Below are positions 60,485 to 62,834 of a stretch of 64,000 nucleotides of DNA, in pieces (position 1 is the stretch's first letter; every line of letters starts with the position of its first letter). Both the position numbers and the translations under genes were made by a program. The notes below the pieces were generated by a model. That model ran no database searches. It saw only the letters and a program-made list of their open reading frames with translations, and had not been told where the DNA came from. The DNA lies in contig CBDCUI010000009.1 of the NCBI GenBank assembly GCA_965222615.1, positions 992,001-1,056,000 on the forward strand, given 5' to 3'. This DNA comes from Gammaproteobacteria bacterium. Lineage in GTDB: Bacteria > Pseudomonadota > Gammaproteobacteria > UBA4575.

Positions 60485-60706
60485 TTATTAACTAAAGGCT
60501 TTTTGTAATTAAATAAAATTGTTCAAGCGCAGAATTATATAATTAAAAAGTATGCCTTTAGCATGATCAATTTACGAGTAATAGCTAGTTATTTTTAATA
60601 TAGTGTGCCTTTGACACTATTTAATCTGCGTAAACATAAGTAGTGTCGCTTCGCGACTGCTTAACTTACGAATAATACCCATTCGCACGTGTCCCACACA
60701 CAAGGG

Positions 60707-60783
60707 TGGTGGCTATGATTGGACTTGAACCAATGACCCCAGCATTATGAATGCTGTGCTCTAACCAACTGAGCTACATAGCC
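60707..60783 (-). tRNA. tRNA-Met (elongator, anticodon CAT)
   Basis: GGCTATGTAGCTCAGTTGGTTAGAGC...TTCATAA...GGTTCAAGTCC...ATAGCCACCA, 77 nt with encoded CCA. Confidence 0.95.
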
Positions 60784-60847
60784 ACTATAGATTGGATCGC
60801 GGACGATACGATACGGACCTAAACCCTGTCAACTTGTCCAGTGATCA

Positions 60848-60982
60848 TAATCTAAAAACGTTAGCGAAGCAGCCAAGACAAGGCAAAAATGTCCGAACAA
60901 GCGGAGTTTACATATAAGTAAATGAGCACTGTAGGGACATTTTTAACGCAGTATTGGCAACGCAGCTAGTTTTTAGACGTTA
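60848..60982. repeat. ~135-bp palindromic MITE-like element sharing a core with 28580-28724 but with different ends
   Basis: Ends TCTAAAAAC/GTTTTTAGA; core AGGCAAAAA..CGGAGTTTAC..GTAAATGAG..TTTTTAACGC. Confidence 0.7.
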
Positions 60983-61102
60983 AAGCGAAAATGTACAACA
61001 AAAATTCATGTAGACCTCACCCACTAGACATTGAACCGAAAATGCACCACTAGGGATTCTTGTACTACCCACCTCTTACACATTAAATCTAAAGTGTACG
61101 AC
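60973..61102 (-). repeat. Three synonymous copies of the ychF terminal 27 bp separated by 24/25-bp linkers
   Basis: 61076-61102, 61024-61050 and 60973-60999 each translate to VVHFRFNV-stop. Confidence 0.93.
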
Positions 61103-62182
61103 ATCTCCTTCCTGCATCACATATTCTTTACCTTCAAGTCGCCATTTCCCTTGTTCTTTAGCCCCTGCTTCACCTTTAGCATCTATATAATCTTGGTAAC
61201 TTACTACTTCTGCTCGAATAAATCCCTTTTCAAAATCGGTGTGAATTTTTCCTGCCGCTTGAGGCGCTGTGGTCCCTTTGGAAATGGTCCAGGCCCTTGC
61301 TTCTTTAGGGCCCGCAGTGAAAAAGGTTTGTAGATTCAATAATTCATAACCCGCTTGTATTACTCTATTTAAACCTGGCTCATCTAGGCCTAGCTCATGT
61401 AAATATTCTTGTTTTTCTTCATCATTTAATTGTGCAAGTTCTGCTTCGATCTTTGCACATACTGGAATCACTTGAATCGATTTCTCCTGAGATGATTTTT
61501 TTTGAACAAACTCTTCGAGTTTTTTTAAATATGGGTTATTTTCAAATCCATCTTCAGTCACATTAGCTATATAGAACACGGGCTTTCGCGTGATAAGATG
61601 CAGATCTTTTAGAAGATGTTCTTGTTCTTTATCTATGTTAAAACTAACCGCCGGCTTTTCATTCTCTAAATGATTTTTTAGCTTAGTGTATACATCAAGT
61701 TGCGCAATAGCTTCTTTATTACCTGATTTCGCCACACGTTCTACTTTGCTAATAGCTTTTTCTATCGTTTCCAAATCCGCCAAGATCAATTCAGTATTAA
61801 TCGTTTCCAAATCTGACAAGGGATCAATCTTGCCATCCACATGAATAATGTTTTCATCGTCAAAGCATCTAACCACATGTGCAATTGCGTCAGTTTCACG
61901 CACATGACCTAAAAATTGATTACCAAGGCCTTCACCTTTTGATGCACCTGCAACTAAGCCTGCAATATCAACAAACTCGATCGTGGTAGGGATAACTTCT
62001 TTAGACTTGGCAATTTGAGCAAGTGTATCGAGTCGAGAATCCGGTACAGGAACAATGCCGATATTAGGATCGATTGTACAAAAAGGATAATTTTCTGCTG
62101 CAATTTCTGTCGCAGTCAAAGCATTAAATAATGTTGATTTTCCAACATTCGGTAGGCCCACTATTCCACATTTAAAACCCAT
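61076..62182 (-). CDS. ychF: Redox-regulated ATPase YchF
   Basis: [38 protein letters not shown]. Confidence 0.98.
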
Positions 62183-62249: not shown

Positions 62250-62834
62250 CTAATTTCTTGTGTGTAACTTTTTCATAGCGGCCTCCATTTCACCTCGAAG
62301 TAATTCATCTACCACTGTCAGTGCATCATCGATTGCCCCATCAATTTCAGCTTTGTCTTGACTACTTGTTTTTTTCAGTACGTAGTTCACTACTTGGTTC
62401 TTATCACCCGGGTGCCCGACTCCAATCCGTATTCGCCAAAAGTCTTTATTTAAATGAGAAAATATGCTGCGCAAACCATTATGTCCACCATGCCCACCAG
62501 CCCATTTCAATTTAATCTCGCCACTGGGCAAATCAATTTCATCGTGTGCGATTAAGATTTCTTCAGTAGATATTTTATAAAAATCAGCAAACGGACGTAA
62601 CGACTCGCCACTTTCATTCATATAGGTATGCGGTTTCAATAACCAAATTTTTTCACCTTGATAAAAAAAGAAGGCAACTTCACCTTTGAATTTGGATTCG
62701 TATTTGAAAACAGCATTATTTTTTCTTGCGACTGCATCTACAAACCAAAACCCGGCATTATGCCGGGTTTGTAAATGCTTCTCGCCAGGATTGCCAAGTC
62801 CGACAATAAGACGTATACCTTTCTGATTAGACAC
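62250..62834 (-). CDS. pth: Peptidyl-tRNA hydrolase
   Basis: GLGNPG, TRHNAGF, YMNESG, GGHGGHNGL. Confidence 0.97.
   Translation of the reverse strand: MSNQKGIRLIVGLGNPGEKHLQTRHNAGFWFVDAVARKNNAVFKYESKFKGEVAFFFYQGEKIWLLKPHTYMNESGESLRPFADFYKISTEEILIAHDEIDLPSGEIKLKWAGGHGGHNGLRSIFSHLNKDFWRIRIGVGHPGDKNQVVNYVLKKTSSQDKAEIDGAIDDALTVVDELLRGEMEAAMKKLHTRN

Follow-up and report, generated by a model that had tools for sequence, protein, structure and literature searches.

Why should a single gene be followed by two further versions of its own last codons? The question is raised by a window of 64,000 nucleotides (nt), by which the whole analysed stretch is meant (contig CBDCUI010000009.1 of assembly GCA_965222615.1, positions 992,001 to 1,056,000), from an uncultured gammaproteobacterium of the lineage UBA4575. 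On the minus strand of this window, the end of ychF, VVHFRFNV-stop in a nine-codon reading, was found to occur three times. The coding sequence of ychF (61076-62182, 368 amino acids) closes with the end E1 (61076-61102), which contains the eight codons for VVHFRFNV and TAA. E1 was taken as the working end because the open reading frame (ORF) fits the YchF equivalog model TIGR00092 over its full length (526.9 bits, profile positions 1-368 of 368). It was followed by spacer 1 (61051-61075, 25 nt), the displaced end copy E2 (61024-61050, VVHFRFNV and TAG), spacer 2 (61000-61023, 24 nt) and the distal end copy E3 (60973-60999, VVHFRFNV and TAA), which is probably the oldest. The start-to-start spacing was 52 and 51 nt. 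The array is read here, tentatively, as a stack of superseded ychF 3′ ends that arose by out-of-register recombination with DNA of co-occurring relatives.

The three ends were found to differ at silent positions only. Of 27 nt, 8 differ between E1 and E2, 6 between E1 and E3 and 6 between E2 and E3, with zero amino-acid change and the stop retained in every copy; the copies are 70-78% alike, and AGA, CGG and CGC are all used for arginine. Only 17 of the 81 possible single substitutions in E1 are silent, and the simulated chance of an all-silent outcome was 0, 1e-5 and 2e-5 for the three pairs (100,000 trials each). Both the sequence and the simulation thus bear out the preliminary description, which had reported three copies with 8, 6 and 6 synonymous differences. 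A repeat search returned a family of three 26-nt copies at intervals of 51 and 52 nt, the identities being 81% and 77%, and Tandem Repeats Finder reported no array at the locus, the spacers being too diverged. The codon usage of the genome under study, called G000 here (other G numbers denote relatives), flagged no copy as foreign (AGA 16%, CGC 21%, CGG 5%).

Within G000, the phenomenon was found at one gene. Among 5602 stop-to-stop ORF ends, recoded downstream copies were present at ychF only, and the peptide VVHFRFNV had no further copy anywhere else in the genome. The scan otherwise returned long perfect tandem repeats, a near-identical copy that differs by 1 nt and one tandem paralogous gene pair. 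The long perfect tandem repeats lie at C7:198-208 kb and C8:245-254 kb; their periods are 333 nt (about 30 copies), 324 and 339 nt, and they were seen as out-of-frame ORF ends and probably belong to giant repeat proteins. At C9:116.9-117.6 kb, two adjacent paralogous small genes share nearly the same last eight residues, with 6 nt differences. This pair was considered as a second stack of ends and rejected as a whole-gene tandem duplication.

The array was reproduced by contigs assembled apart from the window. One Logan contig of sequencing run X1 covered positions 60756-61235 with 0 differences, X1 being possibly the very sample from which the window was assembled, and two overlapping Logan contigs from a further sample of the study, run X3, covered 60843-61336 with 0 differences. 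Two stack-bearing relatives were available as single-contig chromosomes of 2.4 and 2.7 Mb. The array is confirmed as real, and the assembly chimera that the preliminary description had named as a possible refutation is ruled out as far as contigs can show.

The stack was found to be confined to one small clade. The end pattern was present in 50 of the 56 genomes of the family, and four of the 56 contained more than one copy, namely three in G000 and two each in G001, G014 and G044; multiple copies were always adjacent, with a period of 51-52 nt. A scan for the two-copy pattern over 185,579 species genomes (one genome per species; G000 itself possibly lay outside the scan) gave three matches, which were the same relatives G001, G014 and G044. 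No stack was found in the metagenome contigs of JGI. The displaced copies of G001, G014 and G044, one in each, showed 3, 3 and 2 silent differences, so that five displaced copies in four genomes are intact.

Decayed displaced copies were looked for by reading the intergenic DNA in 21 genomes. G047 was found to contain a displaced copy with 1 replacement and G019 one with 3 replacements, and G048 probably contains three copies behind the working end, with damage growing distally; the two decayed copies of G048 scored 26 and 20 in alignment against a 95% shuffle level of 24 and are borderline. The decayed copies of these three genomes carry amino-acid changes or indels. A very old remnant shared by G043, G045, G049 and G050 was suspected by eye and was not significant by alignment, and 18 loci from other genera and families contained no extra end copy. 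The number of head-to-tail units, 51-53 nt each, was found to vary from 1 to 4 among relatives. In all, three relatives have intact stacks and three more have decayed copies. Stacked, silently recoded gene ends are real and rare, occur in a handful of related uncultured gammaproteobacteria and are apparently undescribed: no published case was found in the part of the literature that the searches reached.

An association with the six bases before the working end was also noted. Among the 21 genomes, nine contained GGAGAY at this place, and seven of the nine carried recognisable displaced copies, whereas none of the 12 genomes with other Gly/Ala-Asp codons before the end did so; kin are not independent, and the association is a lead only. 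G048 differs from its four sisters both in GGAGAY and in the presence of displaced copies.

The direction of growth was read from junctions held in common by relatives. In G000 as in G014, the last copy adjoins one and the same repeat element, whose outer arm contains the stop codon, and 154 of the 190 nt from the last stop to the tRNA gene are identical between them. In G019 and G047, the displaced copy retains the conserved flank that is found behind the single working end of G041. Because these junctions are common to G000 and G014 and to G019, G047 and G041, the copy beside the old flank is the ancestral end; units joined the array next to the gene, and the older ends were pushed distally, as had been proposed for insertion behind the Asp codon. 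The displaced copies are orthologous to working ends of relatives, the newest copy is the proximal one, and displaced copies decay as non-coding DNA with age. The suggestion that the array can be read as a chronological record is therefore supported, the graded distal decay of G048 being borderline by score.

The age of the copies bears on where they evolved. At fourfold sites of ychF, identity was 29-42% among G000, G001 and G014 and among G019, G041 and G047, which is saturated; a looser set, the third positions of the eight residues, gave 31-50%. A non-coding copy is expected to gain replacement changes and indels about three times faster than silent changes. Displaced copies free of replacement change must be young, because the fourfold sites are saturated between these genomes, and since the intact displaced copies are young, their many silent differences must predate displacement. 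Ends that share a genome are different at nearly every silent site, with all replacement sites unchanged, which argues that the incoming ends evolved as working ends elsewhere. Judged from these substitution patterns, each end probably functioned until recently as the gene end of a diverged lineage and was then imported, in agreement with the earlier proposal that each copy had once served as a real ychF end.

The spacers were found to form one family. Spacer 1 and spacer 2 are identical in register at 14 of 24 positions (about 58%; z 3.3-3.4), and across genomes the mean pairwise score reached z 6.2, which none of 1000 shuffles equalled, whereas unrelated flanks taken as a control gave z 1.8. 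Eight of the nine spacers are 24-26 nt long, the ninth, in G048, being 7 nt, and in most units the homology of the displaced copy begins no more than 2 nt from the first codon. The spacers are more alike than would be expected after saturated neutral divergence, which suggests either that units spread horizontally in the clade or that the spacers are constrained. Because the spacers are related beyond what shuffles reach, the family fits a single founder followed by horizontal spread.

The sources considered for the spacers found no support. The spacers are unlike the 24 nt of coding sequence upstream and unlike the DNA that follows the array, the first 40 nt of which were spacer-like in none of 19 genomes. 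For an origin in the 60 nt of upstream coding DNA, only G014 (z 2.5, p 0.01) and spacer 2 of G000 (maximum z 2.8) stood out; for an origin in the -35 region of the tRNA promoter, only G044 reached p 0.015; and for decayed half copies of the 27-mer end, only G044 reached z 3.1. None of these scores would survive correction for the number of tests. Local tandem duplication was rejected on the same ground of sequence: copies made in this way would be identical at first, the non-coding one decaying later at every kind of site, and the spacer would resemble a flank; the opposite was observed, the units being unlike in their spacer half and the spacer traceable to no adjoining sequence.

The preferred reading, recombination with relatives, joins these results in one sequence of steps. 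A unit would consist of the last eight codons and the stop (27 nt) together with a spacer of 24-26 nt, and the founding event would have been a single duplication or insertion of about 51 nt in the ancestor of the small clade. The donor of a later unit would be a related stack-bearing bacterium from the same samples, whose second end would pair out of register with the first end of the recipient, so that one donor unit would be added. The new unit would land directly behind the Asp codon and its end copy would take over as the working end, and the previous end would be shoved downstream, turn non-coding and decay. Repair of a break is an alternative form of the step, and neither a dedicated recombinase nor a cargo would be required. 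With one founder and exchange among relatives, it would be explained why unit length is inherited, why the spacers are related and the ends recoded, and why the stacks are restricted to a clade; recombination with relatives appears as the most economical route, the out-of-register step itself being put forward as a hypothesis. It also counts for this reading that no recombinase was found near the array and no cargo or element-borne mimic was found in the genome, in the viral contigs or in 400 genomes of the class.

The locus borders a recombination hotspot, and several relatives, among them one with a stack, co-occur in the sample. The gene content behind the tRNA-Met gene differs in nearly all of 15 genomes compared. 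The ychF genes of G044 and G045 are about 80% alike; behind them, a stretch of at least 2.4 kb that starts in the T-arm of tRNA-Met is about 100% identical (loci L040 and L062, from the interior of the tRNA gene to about 2.6 kb downstream). Either an island was recently exchanged at the tRNA, or binning or assembly crossed over between metagenome-assembled genomes (MAGs). In run X1, across window positions 60650-61450, the G000 strain was present at a depth of about 8 and a relative like G001 at a depth of 30. The contig at depth 30 is about 80% alike, its listed differences in spacer 1 fit the spacer of G001, and it contains a two-unit stack of its own. At least two further relatives were present in X1, with contigs that join the tRNA and the ychF end at other points; several of the joints found in the runs have sides shorter than 30 nt or involve other organisms, and they were used only for the co-occurrence of relatives.

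Several points weigh against recombination with relatives. No donor was identified, and no imported tract was detected upstream of an end copy, a result of low power in which everything else is at least 15% diverged. The last 120 nt before E1 of G048 are still closest to its sister G043 (85%), and the last codons before the end in G000 look native. Two segments of 27 nt with 70-85% identity are a very poor substrate for RecA, and because they would pair poorly, microhomology joining or break repair would be needed. The tight spacer length and the near-fixed start of the copies are explained at least as well by a site-specific process, of which the association with GGAGAY (7 of 9 against 0 of 12) could be a recognition-site mark. 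With two recent additions in G000 alone, events would have to be fairly frequent.

The choice of mechanism lies between recombination with diverged relatives, to which we incline, and a site-specific cassette process, which is a real but clearly less probable possibility and the main rival. According to the latter, mini-cassettes of about 51 nt would be inserted behind the Asp codon by a recombinase or a single-strand transposase acting in trans, again leaving a polarised record, in the manner of an integron or a CRISPR (clustered regularly interspaced short palindromic repeats) array. The uniform unit size with 24-26 nt in eight of nine spacers, the start of displaced homology at the first codon within 2 nt in most units, the restriction to ychF among the ORF ends of G000, the concentration of displaced copies in genomes with GGAGAY and the membership of the spacers in one family are all in its favour, and a precise insertion would agree with the native look of the codons that directly precede the end copy.

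The evidence against mini-cassettes concerns mainly their machinery and their source. The absence of an integrase from the window, stated in the preliminary description, was confirmed, and no recombinase ORF was found near the array; six matches to PF00589 are present in the genome, the nearest about 180 kb away, and the two best look like XerC/XerD by score only, so that no candidate enzyme emerged. Genes for Y1 transposases (of the REP-associated tyrosine transposase (RAYT) or IS200-like kind, REP standing for repetitive extragenic palindromic) were found in G000 (1), G001 (3), G014 (2) and G002 (1) and in no other genome of the genus g7. As machinery they were rejected, since their distribution does not follow the stacks: they are absent in the stack-bearing G019, G044, G047 and G048, several of which are fragmented MAGs. 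A free or element-borne unit of end and spacer was found neither in the genome itself nor in the viral contigs nor in the 400 class genomes, the plasmid and phage collections of GenBank not having been searched. The units within one genome are strongly diverged, so that a foreign source would still be required, and we know of no vehicle that moves a unit of 51 nt between cells; a double-stranded circle of 51 bp is an implausible substrate. The relic before the displaced copy of G014 seems to take in about 10 nt of upstream coding sequence (p 0.01, uncorrected, 26 tests), and if this is real the junction is not fixed. A bolder form of the idea was rated unlikely: that the units are cargo-less, non-autonomous micro-cassettes of about 51 nt which home to the last codons of ychF among co-habiting bacteria by an unrecognised recombinase, perhaps one that reads only the non-wobble positions together with the GGAGAY motif. 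Every unit would then carry a silently recoded end of its own, and the array would be a chronological record made of gene ends.

A third explanation, that the copies are attachment-site scars left by large integrative elements which integrated repeatedly and lost their bodies, in the manner of cis-mobilizable elements (CIMEs), was judged improbable. Integrative islands are known to restore the end of the target gene with incoming DNA and to displace the original fragment (as stated in the Islander abstract), and ychF appears in print, in the text available, as an integration locus in Gram-positive bacteria, both for pipolins with large serine recombinases and for a pneumococcal prophage at a site between a DUF951 gene and ychF (PMC8637289; bioRxiv 10.1101/2024.05.22.595293). 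The neighbouring tRNA-Met gene is in addition an active island site in relatives. Random loss of bodies, however, would not leave 24-26 nt in eight of nine cases, and the islands seen in relatives use the tRNA and not ychF. The spacers are the only DNA between the end copies of the array, with no cargo, and no element was found between two end copies in the 56 family genomes. A genuine distant second end copy occurred in 0 of 400 sampled class-level genomes, a sample that includes the unpublished G350 and G362 with one match each; two double matches were artefacts, one of assembly redundancy and one of a stray contig of 717 nt.

The same searches decided the fate of the link to tyrosine-recombinase islands of the GInt/SE type, which the preliminary description had drawn. 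No integrase, cargo or mimic was found, and ychF is unmentioned in the GInt paper and in the main text on the host range of SE elements (PMC10214605), as far as these sources were available, the supplements of which could still list ychF; the link is not upheld. Viral contigs, 2.9 million in number, contained no mimic of the ychF end, the single match being a genuine ychF end. The matching contig (IMG/VR contig L039, 1-6888), from another gammaproteobacterium, was found to contain this end followed by tRNA-Met, a tyrosine-integrase-like ORF and filamentous-phage-like genes, which are Zot-like by length and motifs, the element sitting in the tRNA behind ychF. No displaced 3′ fragment of tRNA-Met that would mark an island was found in G000 within 5 substitutions in 30 nt. 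The preliminary description had named decayed copies in relatives, together with the lack of elements carrying similar ends, as evidence against itself; both were found, and they weaken its proposal of an element and strengthen its proposal of displacement.

It is comparably improbable that an old tandem duplication was kept by selection, with nothing imported, because the copies serve as spare ends, a small ORF, a read-through tail or a signal in DNA or RNA. The intact state of the five displaced copies in four genomes would be accounted for, and in G000 and G001 the 52-nt period sets copy 2 in frame with an ATG in the last ychF codons, giving ORFs of 19 amino acids; the DNA between the last copy and the tRNA, 81-87% identical where fourfold sites are at 29-42%, also makes constraint plausible. 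The displaced copies decay, however, in G019, G047 and G048, the small ORF is broken in G044, and an in-frame stop lies just upstream of copy 3 in G000. It is exactly the silent positions that vary, which points to selection at the protein level, and no protein route exists for all copies.

A signal in RNA was likewise not indicated. No terminator-like site was found at the array, the fold of the whole array had z -0.47, and seven units of five genomes gave z +1.5 to -2.1 with no common fold. Rfam matches at the locus were the tRNA and a sub-threshold antisense plastid match. An intrinsic terminator or structured RNA element is not supported, there being no stable conserved stem-loop. A diversity-generating retroelement was rejected as well, since the differing positions are not template adenines whichever copy is taken as template and no amino acid is altered.

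Chaining of the ends of co-occurring strains by assembly or binning, conceivable because the genomes are metagenome-assembled and X1 holds several relatives, is the weakest explanation and hardly credible, given the one Logan contig that spans all three copies, the same sequence in the second sample, the two single-contig chromosomes, and copies that differ every few bases and share no long exact words to mislead a graph assembler.

The stack resembles several known systems and was found to differ from each. Islander-type islands in tRNA and tmRNA genes and the accretion of CIMEs and integrative and conjugative elements (ICEs) are alike, in the descriptions available, in that a replacement 3′ end is supplied, the old end remains as a downstream direct repeat and the newest lies nearest to the gene. 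Here only 24-26 nt lie between the repeats, neither integrase nor cargo is present, no element whose site would match was found, and the ychF repeats are recoded at silent sites whereas island repeats are near-identical. Accretion of this kind is reportedly exemplified by ICESt1 at fda. Gene-end replacement by incoming DNA, known from islands, thus appears here stripped to a minimum of one end and 24-26 nt, and stacked.

CRISPR arrays and the cassette arrays of integrons share with the stack the alternation of repeat and short spacer, growth at one fixed end and a position that reflects age. The repeats of CRISPR arrays are near-identical, being copied from the first repeat, and their spacers are unrelated, whereas the ends of the ychF stack differ at 6-8 of 27 nt and its spacers are related. 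No attC-like fold such as marks an integron was seen in the ychF units; cas and intI genes were not specifically searched for. Slippage or unequal crossing-over would also give head-to-tail units of 51-53 nt in variable number, but here the coding half has changed at silent sites alone, the spacer halves differ by about 42% and the spacers match no flank.

Homology-facilitated illegitimate recombination with mosaic uptake of foreign alleles, in the part of its literature consulted, is alike in that a foreign stretch is anchored by homology on one side and by short homology on the other and can add sequence; its junctions are scattered, whereas at ychF the same unit geometry recurs at one gene in several lineages. 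No Tn7-like genes, transposon ends or target duplication were seen at the locus, although no search was aimed at them. Tn7, at attTn7 behind glmS, recognises a conserved C-terminal coding segment, tolerates wobble and acts about 25 bp behind the stop. The likeness to the stack lies in the conserved, wobble-tolerant coding segment and the fixed distance of about 25 bp. Duplication of the gene end, by contrast, is no part of Tn7 insertion.

On the minus strand, the order of features around the array was found to be pth (62250-62834), ychF, an intergenic stretch of 292 nt that includes the displaced copies, and a gene for tRNA-Met with the anticodon CAT (60707-60783), which we take to be of the elongator type. 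The tRNA gene forms the downstream boundary of the locus and is an island hotspot in relatives. It was found to be preceded by a promoter-like site (60803-60832) with TTGACA, 18 nt and TATCGT, which is a match to consensus only; the -35 hexamer is kept in relatives, and in several genomes of the genus g7 a short palindromic box is conserved upstream of this promoter.

Between the promoter-like site and the array lies a palindromic dispersed repeat, REP-like and arranged as an inverted repeat (60851-60977, 127 nt, core 60867-60955, minus strand). The last five bases of E3 form part of its outer arm; the element stands outside the stack proper but marks the old gene-end junction. The element has 27 further matches in the genome (44 blastn rows including itself), and genome-wide its copies in G000 contain a conserved core and locus-specific outer arms. 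In the orthologous copy of G014, the changes are concentrated in two stem segments that face each other. The non-coding DNA from the last ychF end to the tRNA (60784-60972, compared with G014, and likewise among G019, G041 and G047) was found to be 81-87% identical at fourfold identities of 29-42%; this is a sign either of strong constraint or of more recent exchange of the module.

Under either of the two leading readings, the locus is a clean case from nature in which the pattern of silent sites betrays what a stretch of DNA once did before it became non-coding, and it calls for caution in the annotation of gene ends and intergenic repeats. If the cassette reading were true, the units would represent a new class of miniature mobile DNA with a new logic of target recognition. 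If recombination with relatives is the true course of events, the stack would be a rare, readable fossil record of successive exchanges between deeply diverged and apparently co-habiting uncultured bacteria, and its intact, slightly decayed and ruined copies would form a clock beside an island hotspot.

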